NCBI GenBank assembly: GCA_041690175.1 | Contig: JAWLHV010000005.1 | Coordinates: 14,496 to 78,495 of the forward strand | Source of the DNA: Dehalococcoidia bacterium | GTDB lineage: Bacteria; Chloroflexota; Dehalococcoidia; UBA2979 | Length of the DNA stretch: 64,000 nt | Reading direction: 5' to 3' | Shown here: piece after piece, positions 6,029-42,640 of the stretch | How positions within the stretch are numbered: the stretch's first letter is position 1 | How the letters are laid out: every line of letters starts with the position of its first letter | Notes under the pieces: model-generated | Databases searched by the model: none | Told to the model about the DNA's origin: nothing | Seen by the model: only the letters and a program-made list of their open reading frames with translations | Made by a program: the position numbers and the translations under genes

Positions 6029-6760
6029 GTGCAGGTCATCGTCCGCCTCTTTGCCGGACTGCGCGAGGTCGCCGGAAGCGACCGGCTCGTCGAGGAGTTC
6101 GACGCGCCCTCCGTCTCCGTGGAGACGCTGCGCTCGCGCCTGGACGAGGCCCACCCGAAGTTGCGCCCCTACCTCAGTGGGGTCGCCATCGCCGTGAACG
6201 AGGAATACATCCTGGAGCCCGGCACAGCCCTGAACGACGGCGACACCGTGGCACTGATCCCGCCCATCGCCGGCGGCGCGGAAGCGCCGGCGGACGTGGC
6301 CCCCCTATTCCTGGTGACCTCGGAGGTCCTGGACCCGCGCCCGCTGCGGGACGCCGTGATGACGCGCGCCAGCGGCGCGTGCGTGCTCTTCGAGGGCGTC
6401 GTGCGCGACCACCACGAGGGCCGCGCCGTGGACCGCCTGGAGTACGAGGCCTACGAGGAGATGGCGCAGCGCCAGTTGCGCGCCGTGGCCGAGGAGGTCA
6501 TGGCGGACTTCGCCGCCCGCGAGGTCCACGCCATTGGCATCCACCACCGCGTGGGCGCCCTGGGCGTGGGGGAGACCTCGCTGCTGGTCGCGGTCTCCGC
6601 GGCCCACCGCCAAGACGCCTTCGAGGCGGCACTGCGCGCGGTGGACCGCGTCAAGGAGACCGTGCCGGTGTGGAAGAAGGAGTGGGGGCCGGACGGCTCC
6701 CACTGGCAGGAAGGCGTCCAGCCGCAGCCGGGACGCCAGGCCTCCAACCAGCCGGGGTAG
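6029..6760 (+). CDS. moaDE: MoaD-MoaE fusion protein (molybdopterin synthase sulfur-carrier and catalytic subunits)
   Basis: GTG start at 6029 with GGAG upstream; N-terminal region VQVIVRLFAGLREVAG...ALIPPIAGG is a MoaD fold ending in GG; C-terminal region LFLVTSEVLD...ETVPVWKKEW is MoaE. Confidence 0.8.
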   Translation: MQVIVRLFAGLREVAGSDRLVEEFDAPSVSVETLRSRLDEAHPKLRPYLSGVAIAVNEEYILEPGTALNDGDTVALIPPIAGGAEAPADVAPLFLVTSEVLDPRPLRDAVMTRASGACVLFEGVVRDHHEGRAVDRLEYEAYEEMAQRQLRAVAEEVMADFAAREVHAIGIHHRVGALGVGETSLLVAVSAAHRQDAFEAALRAVDRVKETVPVWKKEWGPDGSHWQEGVQPQPGRQASNQPG

Positions 6761-6768
6761 GCGCATCC

Positions 6769-7797
6769 ATGGTCACCGCGCAGCGCTACTGCCCGTCCTG
6801 CGGGTCAGCCCGCGTCTCCCCGCGCCTGCTCCACCATTGGCGCTGCGAGGCCTGCGGCGTGACGGACTGGAAGAACGCCCAGCCCGTGGCCGGGACCTTC
6901 ATGGTGCGCGACGGCCGCGTGCTGCTGGTGCGCCGCGCGCCGGACATGGAGTACGGGCCCGGCGGCTGGGTGTTCCCCGGCGGCTTCGTGGAGCAGGGCG
7001 AGACGCCGTGGCAGGGCGCCCTCCGCGAGACGTGGGAGGAGGCGTGCGTGCGCCCCACCCTGCTCCGGGCGCTGCCCCCGCGCACCGTGCTGGAACCCCA
7101 CAACATCGTGATGCCGTTCCTGGCGGAACTGCCGCCCGGGCAGGAGCCCGCCCCCGGCCCCGAGTGCGCCGAGGCGCGCTGGTTCGCGTTCGACGAGGTG
7201 CCCTGGGAGGAGATCCCGTTCTCCAGCACGGCCGAGGCGCTGCGCGGCATCATCCAGGGCGAGGCGGGCACGGACCTCTTCGCCCGCGTGACGGAGCCGG
7301 GGCGGCCGCCCACCGCGCTCCGCTTCTGCGCGCGCTGCGGTGCGGCGCTCGGGCCCCGGGCCGCCGATGGCGCGCTCCGCTGCGGTCAGTGCGGCGCCGC
7401 GCGCTGGACGAACCCGCGCCCGAGCGCGGGCTTCCTGGCCATCCGGGACCGCCGGGTGCTGCTCGGGCTGCGTCGTGCGGGACGCGACGGCGCTGGCCGC
7501 TGGGCGTTGCCCTCCGGCCACATGGAGCCGGGCGAGACGCCGGCGGACACCGCCGCGCGCGAACTGCTGGAGGAGGCGGGGGTGCGCGCCTCGGCAGAGC
7601 GGTTCGTGGGCCTCTTCGCCAGCGGCGAGCACTGGGAGGCGGTCTACACCGGTCCGGTGGTCGACGACGCCGGCCCGCCTTCCGGCGAGTTCGAGGCCGT
7701 CGAGTGGTTCACCGGCCCTCGCGCGGCGCTCCTGCCGACCCATCACGGCACGCCTCGGCTGATCGAGTGGGCACGAGGTCAGGGGCTACTGGACTGA
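6769..7797 (+). CDS. tandem NUDIX hydrolase (two zinc-ribbon plus NUDIX modules)
   Basis: MVTAQRYCPSCG...; two Nudix boxes (GGFVEQGETPWQGALRETWEEACV and SGHMEPGETPADTAARELLEEAGV), each preceded by CxxC...CxxC. Confidence 0.8.
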   Translation: MVTAQRYCPSCGSARVSPRLLHHWRCEACGVTDWKNAQPVAGTFMVRDGRVLLVRRAPDMEYGPGGWVFPGGFVEQGETPWQGALRETWEEACVRPTLLRALPPRTVLEPHNIVMPFLAELPPGQEPAPGPECAEARWFAFDEVPWEEIPFSSTAEALRGIIQGEAGTDLFARVTEPGRPPTALRFCARCGAALGPRAADGALRCGQCGAARWTNPRPSAGFLAIRDRRVLLGLRRAGRDGAGRWALPSGHMEPGETPADTAARELLEEAGVRASAERFVGLFASGEHWEAVYTGPVVDDAGPPSGEFEAVEWFTGPRAALLPTHHGTPRLIEWARGQGLLD

Positions 7798-8429
7798 GCC
7801 GTCTCGGACGCGTCCCCGTCGTCACCGGGGGACGTCTCCGGCTCCGGGATCCAGTGCCAGAAGCCGGCGACGAAGCCCCGCGGATCCACCTGGTACTTCT
7901 GGTGCGTGGTCGCCGGCGTCTCCCCGCGGCAGACCCACGAGTAGATCGTCTGGTGGCCGGTCAGCGACCCGGGCAGGGGCGTCCCGGGAAAGTGCTCATT
8001 GCAGAACTGCACCATCTCCGGCGTGGCGTTGCTTCGCAGGTCCGCCTTGCCGCAGGGGAGGTTGGGCCCGTAGGTGCAGGCGTACACGAAACCGTCCATG
8101 CACCGCCAGGAGAACTCCGGCGTCTCCTCTCGCACATCGGCGTCCTGGGGGATCCCGGTAAGGTCCGCGAGCACGAGGAAGACATCCGCTGGGTGGGGCT
8201 CGCCCGCGTAGGGGGCGCCCGGCTCGTCCGCGTTCACCACCTGGCCGCAGTACGAGAACGGGCTCTCGTAGTCCACGTTCGCACTGGTGGCTGGAGCGGC
8301 ATGGGGCGTCCGAGGCGTCACGAGCGGCGTACTGCCCGTCTCCGCGTCTGGCTGCCGTCCGCCCTCGCAGGCAGCGGCCAGGAGGCTGAGCAGGATGGCC
8401 AAGACAACAAGCCCGCGAGGAGCACGCAT
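7779..8429 (-). CDS. secreted lipoprotein, function unknown
   Basis: Signal peptide plus lipobox MRAPRGLVVLAILLSLLAAAC; Cys-rich mature part; its end converges on and overlaps the NUDIX gene end. Confidence 0.55.
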   Translation of the reverse strand: MRAPRGLVVLAILLSLLAAACEGGRQPDAETGSTPLVTPRTPHAAPATSANVDYESPFSYCGQVVNADEPGAPYAGEPHPADVFLVLADLTGIPQDADVREETPEFSWRCMDGFVYACTYGPNLPCGKADLRSNATPEMVQFCNEHFPGTPLPGSLTGHQTIYSWVCRGETPATTHQKYQVDPRGFVAGFWHWIPEPETSPGDDGDASETAQSSSP

Positions 8430-8604
8430 GCACGGTCCACTTCAGAGCCCGCATGCGGTGGGAGTCCTTCCACCGTATCCCGGCCCCCCGGTGCGATCCG
8501 TAGCGATTCCGTGATAACCCGGCTGCCCTGCATCCCCGAGCGCTCACGCACCACCCGAGGGCATCACCGAACCATCGAGGCTCGCGCTCCCACGCCAAGA
8601 TCGG

Positions 8605-9130
8605 GTGCCGGGCCATCTGGCCCCTCCCCCTCGCGGGGGAGGGCTGGCGTGGGGGCAGTCACCGAGGGCCCTCGGACCTCCGAGTTCACGACGAACGGCC
8701 GGGCGAGCGGGCTCAGCACGGTGCGCCCCCAGGCAGAAGGGAGCGGCGCCCAACAGGCGCCGGGACCGTCGAGCACGAGGGAGGACTCAGGATTCTTGCG
8801 GCCGGGGGTCTTGCGACCAACTCCCGCTCGCAGGCGGCGAAGCCCTACCGCCCTCGTGGGTGAGGATTGGGGAGGGGGCAATCATCGAGGGGCCTCGGAG
8901 CTTCGAGTTCACGACGAACCACCGGGGGAGCGGGCGCAGCACGCTGCGCCCCTACAAGAGAAGGGGTTACGGCGACCGACATGCGCCGGGACCGCCGAGT
9001 AGGACAGGGGACCAGGAATCCTGCAGCCGGAAGTCTTGCGACGAACTCCCGCTCGCAGGCGGCGAGGCCCTTAGCCCCCTCCCCCCTTTGAGGGGGAGGT
9101 TGGGGAGAGGGGTCTCCGCCTCTCCTGCCT
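8605..9130. repeat. two tandem diverged copies (~245 bp each, ~75-80% identical) of a GC-rich palindromic intergenic repeat element
   Basis: Unit 1 ~8633-8872 and unit 2 ~8877-9120 share blocks cctcggagcttcgagttcacgacgaac, gggcgcagcacgctgcgcccc and actcccgctcgcaggcggcga; terminal hairpins are gcccctccccctcgcgggggagggc (8607-8632) and ccccctcccccctttgagggggagg (~9076-9100). Confidence 0.8.
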
Positions 9131-9135
9131 CTGGG

Positions 9136-10497
9136 CTACGGCTTCAGCGTCCGGTAGTCCGGCGCCGTGATGTCGCGCAGCACCGACACGTCCTTGTCCG
9201 CCAGGCGAGAGGCGATGCGCGGCTCCAGATCGCCGATGCGCTTATTGGTGGTCACCACCGTGTGCGCGCCAGACAGGTGGCGGTGGTTCAGCAACTGGTA
9301 CAACTTCTCCTCCGCCCACGGACTGGACTTCTGCGCCCCCAGGTCGTCCAGCACCAGCACCGGCGCCTCGACCAGCGCCCGGAACAACTGGTCGTAACGC
9401 CTCGGCGCATCGGGGGCGTAGGCGGCGCGGAGTTCGTCCAGCAGGTCCGGGACGTTGGCGAAGGCCACGCGGTCGCCGGCGTCCAGGCGCTCGTTGGCGA
9501 TGGCCGCGGCCAGGTGCGTCTTGCCGCAGCCGTTGCCACCCATCAGCACCAGCCACCCCTGCGGTTCTCGCGCCCAGCGCAGCGCCTCGCGGTAGGCCGC
9601 CTCCAGGCTCTTGCGCGGCTCGCCCTTCAGGCCGATGCCGTCCGGGATGAAGTCCGCGAACGTGAACTGCGAGAGCCGCTCCCGCGTCATCGCGCCGATG
9701 TGGAGATAGCGAGGGGCCGCGTCACCGTGGGCGAGTTCCACCACCTGCGAGAGCGTGGGATCCGATAGACGGCTCCCCAGCCGCTCGTCGATCTCCGCGG
9801 GATTGCGGACCGCCGTGAAGACCGTGGGCAGCGCCGCGTTGAAGCGGTAGGACACCACCTGGAAGAACTTCTCCCGCGCCCACGCCGTCTCCGAGTAGGC
9901 GTCCAGGTCGTCCAGCACCAGCAGCGGCGCGGTGCGCACCTGCTCCAGCAGGGCGTCGTAGCCCACCTCCGCGTCCTCGTCGTAGCCGGAGCGGAGGTGG
10001 TCCAGGAAGTCCGCCACGGCCATGAACAGCGCGGGGCCGCCGCGGTCGATGACCTCGTTCGCGATCGCCGCCGCCACGTGCGTCTTGCCTGCACCGTGTG
10101 GCCCGGTGAGGACCAGCCAGCCCTCGGGATCGCGCGCGAAGCGCTCCGCGATCGCCACGGCCTCGGCGTACTGCCCCTGCAGCCTCGGGTCGTTCGTGCG
10201 GCCGCTGCGCACCAGCGTCGCGAACGTGAGCCGCTGCATCGGTCCCAGGCGTGAGTACCGCAGCAGACGGCCCCGGCGCTCCTCTGGCGGCTCGTAGCGC
10301 GCGCACTCGCAGGGCACCGGGTGGCCGAAGCGCGGGTCCTGCGGGTCGCCGGTGACGCGCACGAAGCGCGCCCCCTGGCACAGGGGGCAGAGGTCCTCGC
10401 GCTCCTCGCGCGTCTCGACCGGCCGCGCGTCAGTCGCGGCGGTAGAGGTGCGCGTAGGGGTCTGCGGATCGCCCAGGATGTCCCGTAGTTGTTTCAT
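9136..10497 (-). CDS. DnaC/DnaI-like helicase loader with N-terminal zinc-binding motif and two tandem AAA+ modules
   Basis: CPLCQG...PCEC, then Walker A GPHGAGKTHVAAAIANE ... LLVLDDLD, then a second GGNGCGKTHLAAAIANE ... VLVLDDLG; lies directly downstream of dnaB and the DnaD-like gene. Confidence 0.75.
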   Translation of the reverse strand: MKQLRDILGDPQTPTRTSTAATDARPVETREEREDLCPLCQGARFVRVTGDPQDPRFGHPVPCECARYEPPEERRGRLLRYSRLGPMQRLTFATLVRSGRTNDPRLQGQYAEAVAIAERFARDPEGWLVLTGPHGAGKTHVAAAIANEVIDRGGPALFMAVADFLDHLRSGYDEDAEVGYDALLEQVRTAPLLVLDDLDAYSETAWAREKFFQVVSYRFNAALPTVFTAVRNPAEIDERLGSRLSDPTLSQVVELAHGDAAPRYLHIGAMTRERLSQFTFADFIPDGIGLKGEPRKSLEAAYREALRWAREPQGWLVLMGGNGCGKTHLAAAIANERLDAGDRVAFANVPDLLDELRAAYAPDAPRRYDQLFRALVEAPVLVLDDLGAQKSSPWAEEKLYQLLNHRHLSGAHTVVTTNKRIGDLEPRIASRLADKDVSVLRDITAPDYRTLKP

Positions 10498-11110
10498 CGC
10501 CCCGTCCCTCTGCCTGCCAGCGGCGCAGAATCGCCTCCGCGTAGGACCACGACCGCTTGTTCTGTCGGGCGGCCTCGCGCAGCGCGTCCACGATCCACGC
10601 CCCCGGGTAGGCCTGCTCCGCCTCCGCCAGCGCCGCCCCCACCGAGGGCGAGAGCAGCCCGATCTCCTGCTCGTACACCGCGGACGGCGTCCCTGTCGCC
10701 GCCGCGGTCACGCGCGGTGCCGGACGCACGCCCGGGATCGCCTCGGCGCCGGAGGCCACGCGCTCCCGCAACCGCCGCCCGCCCTCGTTGTTCACGAAGA
10801 CCAGCGCGTCACCGTCCTCCAGCGGCAGCGTGAGCAGCACGCCTCGCGCCACCGCCGCCTCCACCGCCACGGCCGTTGCCTCCGCGGCGCGGTCGCCCAG
10901 CGCTCGCGCCAGCGGCGGCTCGCCGGCCAGCGCGCTCACCCGCAGCGCCGCCTGCCGTCCGGGCCGGCCGAGCGCGTACAGCGCGTACAGCGTCACCCGC
11001 AGTTCGTCGGCGTCCTCGATCGCGGGCAGCACCTCCGTGAAGAACTGCACCGGCACCGCCTGCGCGCGCTGCCCGGCGCGAAACCCCTCGAATGGCGTGG
11101 GGGCGGCCAT
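10430..11110 (-). CDS. DnaD-domain replication initiation protein
   Basis: C-terminal KRSWSYAEAILRRWQAEG matches the DnaD/DnaB(loader) C-terminal domain; 6-nt gap to the dnaB stop; overlaps the downstream loader start as currently called. Confidence 0.65.
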   Translation of the reverse strand: MAAPTPFEGFRAGQRAQAVPVQFFTEVLPAIEDADELRVTLYALYALGRPGRQAALRVSALAGEPPLARALGDRAAEATAVAVEAAVARGVLLTLPLEDGDALVFVNNEGGRRLRERVASGAEAIPGVRPAPRVTAAATGTPSAVYEQEIGLLSPSVGAALAEAEQAYPGAWIVDALREAARQNKRSWSYAEAILRRWQAEGRGDETTTGHPGRSADPYAHLYRRD

Positions 11111-11115
11111 GCGCG

Positions 11116-12558
11116 TCAGAACCCGTCCCGGGGCGGTTCCTGGCGCAGGAGCAGGTCCTGGAAGGAGGCCGTCTTGGCCACCCAGCGCACCGTGACGGCG
11201 CCGGTGGGGCCGTTGCGGTGCTTCGCCAGGATCAGTTGGGCCAGGCCCGAAGGGTGCGCCCCGCCCGGCTCGTCCGGGTGCTGGTCCTGCCAGTCGTGCG
11301 CCTGCGTGTAGACGTCCTCGCGGTAGATGAACATCACGATGTCCGCGTCCTGCTCGATGGAGCCGGACTCGCGGAGGTCAGAGAGCATGGGGATGTGCGG
11401 CTGGCGCGTTTCCACGGCACGTGACAACTGGGCGCCGGCCACCACCGGGACGTTCAGTTCGCGCGCCATCTCCTTTAGCGCCCGGGAGATCTGGCTGATC
11501 TCGTTGGTACGGGTGTCCGAACGGCCGGCGCCGTGGAGCAACTGCAGGTAGTCCACCACCACCAGGTCCAGGCCGTGGTCCGCCTGCAGCCGGCGGCACT
11601 TCGCGCGGATCTCCGGCACGGACAGCACCGCCGAGTCGTCGATGAAGATCGGGGCGCCGCCCAGCAGGCCGTGCGCGTTCATCACGCGCGCCTCCTCCGC
11701 CTCCGTGTGGCGGCCCAGGCGCAGGCGGGACATCTCCACGCCTGCCTCGGCGGAGAGCATGCGCATCGCCAGGCTCTCGCCGCCCATCTCCAGGGAGAAC
11801 AGCGCCACGGTGCCGTGCTGCCCAATGGCGCAGTTGCGCGCCAGGTTGAGCATGAGCGAGGTCTTCCCCATGCCGGTGCGCGCGGCCAAGATCACCAGGT
11901 CGCCGCGCTTGTAGCCGCCGGCCAGCAACTGGTCCAGATCCATGAACCCAGTGCGGATGGACTGCGCGAGTTCGCCGTCCTCTTCTTCCGCGGGCGCCTC
12001 CAGGAACTCGTCCAGCAGGTCGCGCAGGCGCTTGAAGTCGCCAGCCGCCTCCGCGGTGCGCAGGCCCAGCAGCAGGCCCTCCGCCTCCGAGAGCACGGCC
12101 TTCACGTCCGGGCCGCCCTCGTAGGCGATGGAGGCGATCTGGCCGGCGGCCTGGATCAGGCGGCGGTAGAGGGCGTCTCGCGCCACGATGCGCGCGTGCG
12201 CCTCCACGCCCACGGCCGTGAAGTACTTCCCGGCCACCTCCACCAGGTAGGTCTCGCCACCGGCGGGGTCCAGGCGGCCCAGGCGATCCAGTTCGTGCGC
12301 GACGGTGGGAATGGTGATGGACTCGCCGCGCTCTCCCACGGAGAGGCAGGCCTCGTAGATCCAGCCGTTCTGCTCACGGAAGAAGTCTTCCGGGCGGACG
12401 ATGGGCAGGACGCGGGCGTAGGAGTCGTCGTCCAGCAGCAGGGCGGCGATGACCGCTTCCTCCGCGGAGACATCATGCGGGGGCAGGCCGGTCTGCGGGC
12501 GAGGGCGCTGGTCACGGCCGGGCGCGCGGAAGGGTGCGGGACGACCCTCGAGCACCAC
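11116..12558 (-). CDS. dnaB: replicative DNA helicase DnaB
   Basis: AALLLDDDSY..., Walker A ARTGMGKTSL, and LSDLRESGSIEQDADIVMFIYRE; conserved position after rplI. Confidence 0.95.
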   Translation of the reverse strand: MVLEGRPAPFRAPGRDQRPRPQTGLPPHDVSAEEAVIAALLLDDDSYARVLPIVRPEDFFREQNGWIYEACLSVGERGESITIPTVAHELDRLGRLDPAGGETYLVEVAGKYFTAVGVEAHARIVARDALYRRLIQAAGQIASIAYEGGPDVKAVLSEAEGLLLGLRTAEAAGDFKRLRDLLDEFLEAPAEEEDGELAQSIRTGFMDLDQLLAGGYKRGDLVILAARTGMGKTSLMLNLARNCAIGQHGTVALFSLEMGGESLAMRMLSAEAGVEMSRLRLGRHTEAEEARVMNAHGLLGGAPIFIDDSAVLSVPEIRAKCRRLQADHGLDLVVVDYLQLLHGAGRSDTRTNEISQISRALKEMARELNVPVVAGAQLSRAVETRQPHIPMLSDLRESGSIEQDADIVMFIYREDVYTQAHDWQDQHPDEPGGAHPSGLAQLILAKHRNGPTGAVTVRWVAKTASFQDLLLRQEPPRDGF

Positions 12559-12638
12559 GGCAGCCCCTCGATCCCCACCGGCCTCGCCGGCGCCACCTCA
12601 GGGGGATGGGGGCTGCGAGCCGGAAAGAGAGAGGAGGG

Positions 12639-13259
12639 CTAAGCGCCCTCCTCGTTGTCCTCGTCTGAGCCCGGCTCCGACGCGCCATCGGCGTCGTCGG
12701 CTTCCGCGGTGGGTTCCGAAGAACCCGCCGCCTCTGCTCGTGGGGCCTCGACCACCTCTTCCTCCACGGGTGGATTCAGAAGCGCCTCCGCGGCCGCCTC
12801 CACGCCTTCCGGCGCGTCAACGTCCACGACCACCACCTGCACCTCGGCCGTCACGTTACGTGACAGTCGGATGCCGATGGGGAAGACCCCAACTCGGCGG
12901 ATCGCCTCGGGCAGCAGTATGCGACGACGGTCCAGGTCCTCGCCGAGAATCTCCCCAGCCTTCTCGGCGATGTCAGCATTTGTGACAGACCCGTACAGTC
13001 GTCCCTGCTCTCCGACGCGGGCCGTGATAACGATCGGGCGCTCGAGCTTGCCGACAAGCCCTTGTGCCTTCTCGTCCTCAGCCCGTTGTCGCTCCGCCTC
13101 GATCTCCCGCAGCCTTTCGGCACGGGCGAGGACTTGCGATGTTGCCGGCGCGGCCAGGCCGCGTGGCAACAGGTAATTCCGGGCGTAGCCTCGGGCGACG
13201 TCTTTGACCTCACCCATGGTGCCGGATCCCTCAACGGTCTCCAGGAACACGACCTTCAC
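12639..13259 (-). CDS. rplI: 50S ribosomal protein L9 with acidic C-terminal extension
   Basis: GTG start (VKVVFLETVEGSGTMGEVKDVARGYARNYLLPRGLA) in the frame of ORF 12639..14165; the rest of that long ORF upstream is non-coding. Confidence 0.85.
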   Translation of the reverse strand: MKVVFLETVEGSGTMGEVKDVARGYARNYLLPRGLAAPATSQVLARAERLREIEAERQRAEDEKAQGLVGKLERPIVITARVGEQGRLYGSVTNADIAEKAGEILGEDLDRRRILLPEAIRRVGVFPIGIRLSRNVTAEVQVVVVDVDAPEGVEAAAEALLNPPVEEEVVEAPRAEAAGSSEPTAEADDADGASEPGSDEDNEEGA

Positions 13260-42419: not shown

Positions 42420-42640
42420 GCTCCCTCCGGCCCCCTCCCAGTGGGGTGCGGGAAGTCCCCTCGAGGTTCACCCGCAGCATCGAAGAGGGCGCAGCACGCT
42501 GCGCCCCTACGACGGACAGCCGGTCTGGCCACACCTCGAAGGGCGCCGGCCACCTCCGGCCCCCCTCTCCTTCCCACAGAGGGAAGGAGAGGGTTGGGAG
42601 GGGGGTCTCCGCCTCTGCCCGCTCGGCCTAGCCCGGGAGT
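42420..42640. repeat. partial copy of the GC-rich palindromic repeat element
   Basis: shares gggcgcagcacgctgcgcccctacgacgg and cccctctccttcccacagagggaaggagagggttgggaggggggtctccgcctc with 8605-9130 and 57960-58080. Confidence 0.75.

Follow-up and report, generated by a model that had tools for sequence, protein, structure and literature searches.

A tandem-AAA+ protein encoded with dnaB, a candidate replicative-helicase loader of a high-GC Dehalococcoidia bacterium

Bacterial helicase loading is understood from DnaC and DnaI, single-module AAA+ proteins that act as six separate chains, and the contribution of each of the six identical ATP sites is a long-standing problem. Tandem modules are familiar from the type II AAA+ unfoldases (p97/VCP, NSF and ClpB), in which each chain carries two modules, commonly with hydrolysis assigned to one and assembly or nucleotide binding to the other, and which form stacked double rings. 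Here, we describe a protein of 453 amino acids (aa) with two AAA+ modules of the DnaC/DnaI/IstB branch, encoded together with dnaB in a 64-kb stretch of DNA from a Dehalococcoidia bacterium (assembly GCA_041690175.1, contig JAWLHV010000005.1, positions 14,496 to 78,495; hereafter the window, with a G+C content of ~70%). For brevity it is called the loader, after the role proposed for it below.

In E. coli DnaC, the residues acting at the ATP site have been assigned as K112 (Walker A), E170 (Walker B), N203 (sensor I), R216 (coupler), R220 (Arg finger) and R237 (sensor II), single-stranded DNA (ssDNA) is contacted by a tetrad of K143, F146, S177 and Y179, and the ATPase is abolished by mutating any of K112, E170, N203, R220 and R237 (Puri et al., PMC8213410). 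DnaI is placed on its helicase as 'three loader protein dimers' with threefold symmetry, that is, as a trimer of dimers (PMC3791466). For Chloroflexi, Brezellec et al. (2016, PMC5109545) recorded one resident dna[CI] gene per genome and no DciA, as a separate phage-gene domestication, and they regarded every bacterial dna[CI] gene as a phage gene that was domesticated; their text has no occurrence of 'duplicat' or 'two AAA'. A full-text search of the literature found no description of tandem or duplicated DnaC, DnaI or IstB loaders. The genes themselves are already public under generic names, and it is the tandem architecture and its asymmetry that appear to be undescribed.

Architecture and ATP sites of the loader

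The loader is encoded on the minus strand (9136..10497) by one unbroken frame with an ATG start. Its chain consists of a disordered N-terminus (residues 1-28), a domain with four cysteines (Cys4 N-domain, ~35-70), a linker (~71-100), module 1 (~100-262), a second linker (~263-290) and module 2 (~290-453), and the motifs begin at residues 37 (CPLC), 63 (CEC), 132 (GPHGAGKT), 192 (LLVLDD), 320 (GGNGCGKT) and 380 (VLVLDD). The Pfam families IstB_IS21, Bac_DnaA and AAA each match two stretches of the protein, and the NCBIfam models PRK08116, DnaI, DnaC and IstB each match it twice. The top Pfam family is IstB_IS21 (PF01695, 115.8 bits against a cut-off of 24.1), and PRK08116 is also exceeded (208.4 bits against 189). 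When the two halves (residues ~80-260 and ~263-447) are aligned with each other, they are 41% identical over 189 aligned positions (E=9e-42), well above what chance would give, so that the protein is a true internal duplication of a ~185-residue unit, which includes the 'tF..f' linker ahead of the AAA+ core. A first-pass annotation of this stretch, made from its letters, had proposed a Cys-rich N-terminus followed by two DnaC/IstB-type AAA+ modules in tandem; the double family matches and the internal repeat bear this out, and every motif that it quoted lies where it was placed in the 453-aa protein.

The Cys4 N-domain (10303..10389, minus strand) is presumed to bind the helicase. Its cysteines C37, C40, C63 and C65 are invariant in every homologue covering that region, which suggests that they bind zinc, and in the predicted structure the domain has two short beta strands (residues 45-47 and 60-62). 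The earlier comparison of this N-terminus with the zinc-binding domain of DnaI amounts to an analogy of layout only. Pfam DnaI_N (PF07319) was not matched at E<=0.01, a profile of the domain retrieved no DnaI-N chain from the PDB at E<=10, and homology to DnaI-N thus went undetected in both sequence-level searches. The zinc ligands of DnaI, according to PMC1636449, are C67, C70 and H84, in contrast to four cysteines here.

The start codon deserves attention, since in the public gene call this same protein (P0001, 408 aa) does not start until residue 46, and C37 and C40 are lost (window 10363-10497). Because C37 and C40 are invariant and M1, L4 and L8 are conserved across 74 species, we take the ATG at 10497 as the real start, and the overlap with the preceding gene, described below, is therefore also real and conserved. 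Many database homologues of ~406-420 aa share the late, truncated start, which removes the conserved CxxC. The findings also correct the annotation of these proteins, now labelled 'ATP-binding protein', 'DnaC' or even 'DnaA'; P0342, a homologue from Anaerolineae, bears the name 'Chromosomal replication initiator protein DnaA'.

An AlphaFold2 model of the loader built from 72 sequences has a mean predicted local distance difference test score (pLDDT) of 86.7 and a predicted template-modelling score (pTM) of 0.56. In both modules the model predicts an AAA+ core with a helix pair after beta2 (H161-170/H180-189 and H349-358/H368-377), as expected for the initiator clade. Both modules also carry the sequence marks of that clade, namely the Walker A Lys, the Walker B acidic pair, the box VII Arg finger and a coupler four residues before it. 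By sequence, the closest solved relatives are DnaI 4m4w (E=3e-13) and 2w58, E. coli DnaC 6qel, S. aureus DnaI 5he8, Aquifex DnaC 3ec2 and IstB 5bq5/8q3w. In Foldseek searches, single modules superpose on DnaI, DnaC or IstB with template-modelling scores of 0.57-0.75 (0.63-0.75 to DnaI and DnaC, 0.57 to IstB) and a root-mean-square deviation (rmsd) of 2.6-4.5 Å. The whole model searched against the PDB found no solved tandem of the same kind, only single-module matches to DnaI, DnaC, IstB and DnaA and poorly superposing p97 and NSF. Because p97 and NSF align only at an rmsd of 12-17 Å, no solved structure shares the module arrangement of the loader. The tandem unfoldases p97, NSF and ClpB in fact belong to another AAA+ clade, with weak (E~1e-4), single-stretch sequence matches to the loader, and unlike their stacked double rings, the two modules of the loader are expected to lie side by side in one spiral.

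To compare the two ATP sites, residue roles were carried over from E. coli DnaC through sequence alignment and the internal repeat. Module 1 (residues ~100-263; 9709..10200, minus strand) has K138, D196/D197, the tetrad equivalents R169/Y172/T204/W206, coupler R239 and finger R243; V230 stands at the sensor I position, and the sensor II Arg is absent. Module 2 (residues ~290-453; 9139..9630, minus strand) has the complete motif set, with K326, D384/D385, R357/Y360/S392/W394, N418 as sensor I, R427, R431 and, in 'PDYR', R449 as sensor II. A motif census anchored on hidden Markov models (HMMs) was then made of the query family (n=194), a Dehalococcoidales set (n=120) and Anaerolineae (n=117). 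In the query family, Walker A is found in all 194 sequences of both modules. Walker B is kept in 192-194 of module 1 and 194 of module 2, the tetrad in 193-194 and 175-194, the coupler in 179 and 188 and the finger in 192 and 194, respectively. The sensors part the two modules. The first-pass annotation had spoken of two complete cores, and had considered that module 2 might be degenerate in all homologues. Completeness stands for module 2, which retains the sensor I Asn in 166/194 and the sensor II Arg in 186/194 and so is no dead pseudo-ATPase, but not for module 1, in which they remain in 5/194 and 3/194. Walker B and the Arg finger, which it proposed to check, are near-invariant in both modules.

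In the Dehalococcoidales set, module 1 has Walker A, Walker B, tetrad, coupler and finger in all 120 sequences, sensor I in 1 and sensor II in none; the counts for module 2 are 119 (Walker A), 120 (Walker B), 116-120 (tetrad), 71 (coupler), 120 (finger), 51 (sensor I) and 81 (sensor II). The Anaerolineae are mirrored. Their first module is canonical, with Walker A, Walker B, tetrad, coupler, finger and sensor II in 117 of 117 and sensor I in 115, and their second module lacks sensor I (5), with Walker A and tetrad in 117, Walker B in 114-117, the coupler in 76, the finger in 110 and sensor II in 90. Judged from these motifs, both classes would pair a complete module with one that has lost the hydrolysis sensors but keeps all that ATP binding, ssDNA binding and donation of an Arg finger require, in opposite order.

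Operon context and distribution

The loader is the last of four closely packed genes on the minus strand, in the order rplI, dnaB, DnaD-like gene and loader. The dnaB gene (11116..12558, 480 aa) encodes a replicative helicase that scores 453 bits on TIGR00665 (cut-off 385) and matches PF00772 and PF03796, and the DnaD-like gene (10430..11110, 226 aa) starts 5 nucleotides (nt) past its stop codon. Residues 145-202 of the 226-aa protein exceed the cut-offs of both models for the C-terminal DnaD domain (DDBH2), PF07261 (27.2 bits against 22, E=3e-6) and TIGR01446 (32.1 bits against 24.95, E=1e-7). The protein also matches the 'DnaD-like replication protein' 2zc2 of the PDB (E=1.4e-3) and the phage family phrog_186, 'DnaD-like helicase loader', and it is presumed to be a co-loader or origin remodeller. 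The loader overlaps the 3' end of this gene by 68 nt (10430..10497, minus strand, out of frame), and a GAGGGA Shine-Dalgarno-like run stands upstream of the loader ATG; this suggests translational coupling of the two genes. The overlap recurs in nearly all related loci and in Anaerolineae. A single operon of rplI, dnaB, a DnaD-domain gene and the loader had been read from the sequence before, and this is right; the family models assign L9, DnaB and the DnaD domain firmly.

The distribution was scanned with one genome per GTDB species, and locus details were taken from the best 80 of 539 genomes. A relative of the loader is encoded in 539 species-level genomes, mostly of Dehalococcoidia. Nearly all of the best 80 carry a Dehalococcoidia or Chloroflexota label; in these 80 the loader identity ranges from 44% to 89% and the G+C content from 39% to 72%, and the L9-DnaB-DnaD-loader order is kept wherever the flank is long enough, even at the lowest loader identity (44%). 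The position of the DnaD-like gene is conserved in 70+ species-level loci. When 1.84 billion cluster representatives were searched exhaustively with HMMER, 548 matched at E<=1e-30. The homologue searches returned names from metagenome-assembled genomes only, and none of a cultured host such as Dehalococcoides mccartyi or Anaerolinea thermophila. When our own module HMM was applied to 383 collected proteins, the duplication that the first-pass annotation had asked to be surveyed was found in most, with 324 two-module, 54 one-module (some of them fragments), 4 three-module and 1 four-module proteins. Anaerolineae form the second large tandem class; there the gene follows dnaB and a DnaD-domain gene, with recA next. 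Tandem loaders had been called a departure from the norm, and this holds among the studied loaders; in this Chloroflexota lineage, on the evidence of the 539 species-level genomes and the Anaerolineae class, the tandem form is the norm, and two large classes of the phylum have it as their standard design.

The gene order had likewise been thought unusual. Adjacency of rplI and the helicase gene is widespread in bacteria, and the dnaB-dnaI operon of B. subtilis sets a DnaD/DnaB-type gene next to dnaI. The order is thus less odd than stated, and what remains of the claim is that both arrangements are joined here in one tightly overlapping, conserved operon.

Several relatives depart from the two-module form. 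The four-module protein (P0121, 827 aa, with four Walker A/B pairs) is encoded at 7001-9484 of locus L081, a 64-kb contig of 43.5% GC, directly after dnaB and a DnaD-domain gene, and since identity among its modules is only 39-64%, it is no artefact of assembly. TTN/PDYR motifs are found in its first three modules and not in the last; assignment of the last module to 'type 1' was tried, and the HMM scores gave it no support. The dnaB gene beside it (L081 4433-6259, 608 aa) bears an intein (PF14890, Intein_splicing). A three-module relative (P0122, 792 aa) is found on a 5.7-kb contig. Single-module proteins with the same CxxC...CxC N-domain occur in some Dehalococcoidia metagenome-assembled genomes (the P0265 cluster) and in Thermogemmatispora (Ktedonobacteria), and they score as the canonical type ('type 2') with the HMMs; they resemble the tandem loader in the N-domain and in having a canonical module, and differ in having one AAA+ module. 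The Thermogemmatispora loader (WP_112430793, 517 aa; P0264 cluster, 516-517 aa) carries a ~290-aa N-terminal extension, for which Pfam gave no match. In P0535 (671 aa, on a 2.3-kb JGI contig), DnaD-like residues 6-203 are fused in frame to a full tandem loader (residues 206-650), either as a natural fusion or through an indel in the normally overlapping gene junction. In a neighbour-joining tree of 158 modules, the internal branches are short (0.002-0.03, against terminal branches of ~0.3) and every module group is nearest to the slow-evolving canonical group D. Because of this star-like shape, one duplication for the Dehalococcoidia and Anaerolineae tandems cannot be told from two.

Loader assembly and alternative readings

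Compared with the described systems, the loader has several familiar and several distinct features. It belongs to the same AAA+ branch as E. coli DnaC (6QEL/6QEM), each of its modules superposes on 6qem_G at an rmsd of 2.6 Å, and the two proteins share the Walker A and B motifs, the coupler four residues before the finger, sensor II (in module 2), the four ssDNA-contact positions and a non-ATPase domain ahead of the AAA+ part. Unlike DnaC, it has two modules per chain with unequal motif sets, a Cys4 N-domain instead of a helical hairpin, and a gene encoded with dnaB and a DnaD-like gene; the enterobacterial DnaC equivalog (NF005931) excludes it, with 106.3 bits where 357 are required. With DnaI of Firmicutes (4M4W, 2W58, 2K7R) it shares a Cys-containing N-domain and a DnaD-domain partner protein. 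It differs from DnaI in having one N-domain per two AAA+ modules and in the single operon that joins helicase, DnaD-like gene and loader, and the DnaI equivalog excludes it as well (NF006505, 114.3 bits against 228). The three DnaI dimers on the helicase (PMC3791466) are nevertheless what a tandem chain would mimic covalently. On sequence grounds, the loader would work like DnaC and DnaI but is built differently, and no new principle needs to be invoked.

We consider it fairly probable that the protein is the chromosomal replicative-helicase loader of this high-GC Dehalococcoidia bacterium, a covalent AAA+ dimer of the DnaC/DnaI/IstB branch with one hydrolysis-competent site and one that binds ATP and hydrolyses it poorly. 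Support for a loader function comes from context, namely the overlapping operon with dnaB, which is conserved in 70+ genomes. That it would be the cell's own helicase loader follows from this conserved operon, from the single dna[CI] gene per Chloroflexi genome and from the retained DnaC-type ATP, DNA and trans-acting residues. The dnaB-DnaD-loader order is also kept in Anaerolineae and at the four-module locus. Because those DnaC-type residues are retained in both modules, both would take part in a DnaC-like head-to-tail assembly around ssDNA. In such an assembly, each chain would act as a covalent dimer, with head-to-tail packing on DnaB as in the spiral of DnaC or the trimer of dimers of DnaI, and we infer that three chains would bring six modules and three helicase-binding Cys4 N-domains to each DnaB hexamer. 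Where DnaC or DnaI needs six separate chains to provide six modules, three would thus probably suffice here. The ATP pockets would alternate between the hydrolysis-competent module 2 and the binding but hydrolysis-poor module 1, so that ATP in module 1 could serve as assembly glue at half of the interfaces and ssDNA-triggered hydrolysis in module 2 as a release switch at the other half. The DnaD-like protein is probably a recruiting or remodelling partner, in view of its suggested translational coupling to the loader, its matches to phage 'DnaD-like helicase loader' proteins and the in-frame fusion P0535, and it would recruit or remodel at the origin, as DnaD and DnaB do in Firmicutes. The intramolecular interface may be the dead or the live site, and the opposite module order in Anaerolineae suggests that either solution works.

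The nearest alternative reading keeps both modules as working ATPases, with other residues serving as sensors in module 1 and the chain equal to two equivalent fused loaders. The near-invariant Walker A, Walker B, coupler and finger of module 1 would fit it, as would the polar residues (S, D, T) near sensor I in some sequences. However, the sensor I position of module 1 is variable (V/A/S/D/R and others) with no single conserved substitute, the sensor II Arg is left in 3/194, and in E. coli DnaC N203A or R237D alone abolishes the ATPase (PMC8213410). The one-sided loss of sensors also recurs at the opposite position in Anaerolineae, and we regard two equivalent ATPases as unlikely. If module 1 instead bound no nucleotide, it could be a structural spacer or adaptor, a pseudo-ATPase that places module 2 or contacts DnaA or DnaD; its missing sensors I and II and its faster evolution (mean identity 0.38 in group A against 0.47 in group D) would be in keeping with this. 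Yet across hundreds of species of 39-72% GC it retains GxxGxGKT in 194/194, the Walker B Asp in 192-194/194, the finger in 192/194 and the ssDNA-contact equivalents in 193-194/194. Such retention is not expected if module 1 has given up both ATP and DNA binding, and makes a nucleotide-free module 1 quite improbable.

Two further readings question the nature of the gene itself. It could belong to a mobile element, as an IS21-type IstB helper or part of a prophage replication module, given that its top Pfam family is IstB_IS21, that the phage families 'DnaC-like helicase loader' and 'DnaD-like helicase loader' of PHROG are matched and that bacterial dna[CI] genes are seen as domesticated phage genes (Brezellec et al., PMC5109545). 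The likeness to IS21 IstB (5BQ5, 8Q3W) extends to the fold and sequence of module 2. Against this, the loader scores 134.4 bits on the IS21 IstB equivalog (NF038214), below the cut-off of 200, no IstA transposase adjoins it, and its neighbours are rplI, a DnaD gene and a helicase gene whose product passes the chromosomal DnaB equivalog. The locus is moreover retained across 70+ species-level genomes and also in Anaerolineae, a second class. A mobile-element IstB, rejected on score, neighbours and synteny, is therefore very improbable. An artefact, in which a frameshift or the misassembly of a repeat fused two loader genes, would be conceivable for a metagenome-type lineage, since tandem paralogues can be misjoined in such assemblies. 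But the frame has no stop, halves that are only 41% identical cannot be collapsed or expanded by an assembler, and the tandem architecture is found in independent NCBI, ENA, JGI and Logan assemblies, multi-megabase contigs included. Of 195 close homologues, 194 have one open reading frame (ORF) with two modules, as do 80 species-level loci, so that the gene is single, as the first-pass annotation had it, and the artefact, rejected for its continuous ORF and conserved architecture, keeps a negligible probability.

Returning to the covalent dimer with unequal sites, several points weigh against it. The module 2 sensor I Asn is often replaced in deeper Dehalococcoidia, being present in 51/120 of the Dehalococcoidales set and in 10/40 of the representatives at 50% identity, so that the 'live' site may not hydrolyse ATP in every member; as far as motifs tell, the full equipment of module 2 characterises the window protein and its closer relatives. 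Chains of three or four modules (P0122, P0121) fit unevenly into a ring of six, and one N-domain per two modules allows at most three helicase contacts of the DnaC/DnaI type. In the AlphaFold2 model each domain is predicted with confidence, but the orientation of the modules to each other is not, as the pTM of only 0.56 indicates. The loader gene content of this genome was viewed through the 64-kb window only, and another loader, DciA or a second DnaC, may be encoded outside it.

A broader proposal, which we put forward tentatively, is that Chloroflexota use covalently concatenated loaders with three chains instead of six per spiral and an obligatory alternation of 'glue' (binding) and 'trigger' (hydrolysing) sites, which would have arisen twice, in Dehalococcoidia and Anaerolineae, with opposite order, and been extended to three and four modules in some lineages. 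If this is true, concatenated loaders would imply loader-to-helicase stoichiometries outside the 6:6 paradigm. In practical terms, a natural covalent dimer fixes the register of the sites, so that each site can be mutated singly, with no need to mix subunits, and the mirror-image Anaerolineae form together with the single-, triple- and quadruple-module relatives is a ready comparative series. The phylum thus offers a natural 'linked-dimer' experiment on a mechanism otherwise hard to dissect. Chloroflexota include the environmentally important organohalide-respiring Dehalococcoidia as well as abundant marine and subsurface lineages.

Other features of the locus

The operon begins with rplI (12639..13259, minus strand), which encodes ribosomal protein L9 with an acidic C-terminal tail (106.8 bits on TIGR00158) and has a GTG start at 13259 with AAGGG ahead of it. 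A sigma-70-like promoter match is found upstream (13558-13530), and because the genes beyond it lie on the opposite strand, rplI is taken to head the unit. In the 80 nt that separate the stop of rplI from the start of dnaB lies a 9-bp G/C-rich hairpin (12631-12653, minus strand) with a weak T-containing tail, which may be an attenuator or partial terminator between ribosomal-protein and helicase expression.

Between the loader stop and the next gene, the non-coding region 8611-9099 contains two tandem ~225-nt copies (8628-8846 and 8851-9071) that are 79-88% identical and bordered by G/C-rich hairpins (CCTCCCCC...GGGGGAGG). It contains no tRNA and no Rfam family, and its predicted folding does not exceed that of shuffled sequence on either strand. 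Short pieces resembling this repeat are seen at 42484-42510 and 42583-42616, and related loci contain hairpin-sized matches of ~35-45 nt only. Further along, the ORF at 6379-7797 (plus strand) encodes, from ~6790 to 7797, two consecutive units, in each of which a Nudix-box-like sequence (GGFVEQGETPWQGALRETWEEACV, SGHMEPGETPADTAARELLEEAGV) comes after a zinc-ribbon-like CxxC...CxxC motif. Judging from the translation in the ORF listing, its product is another internally duplicated protein.

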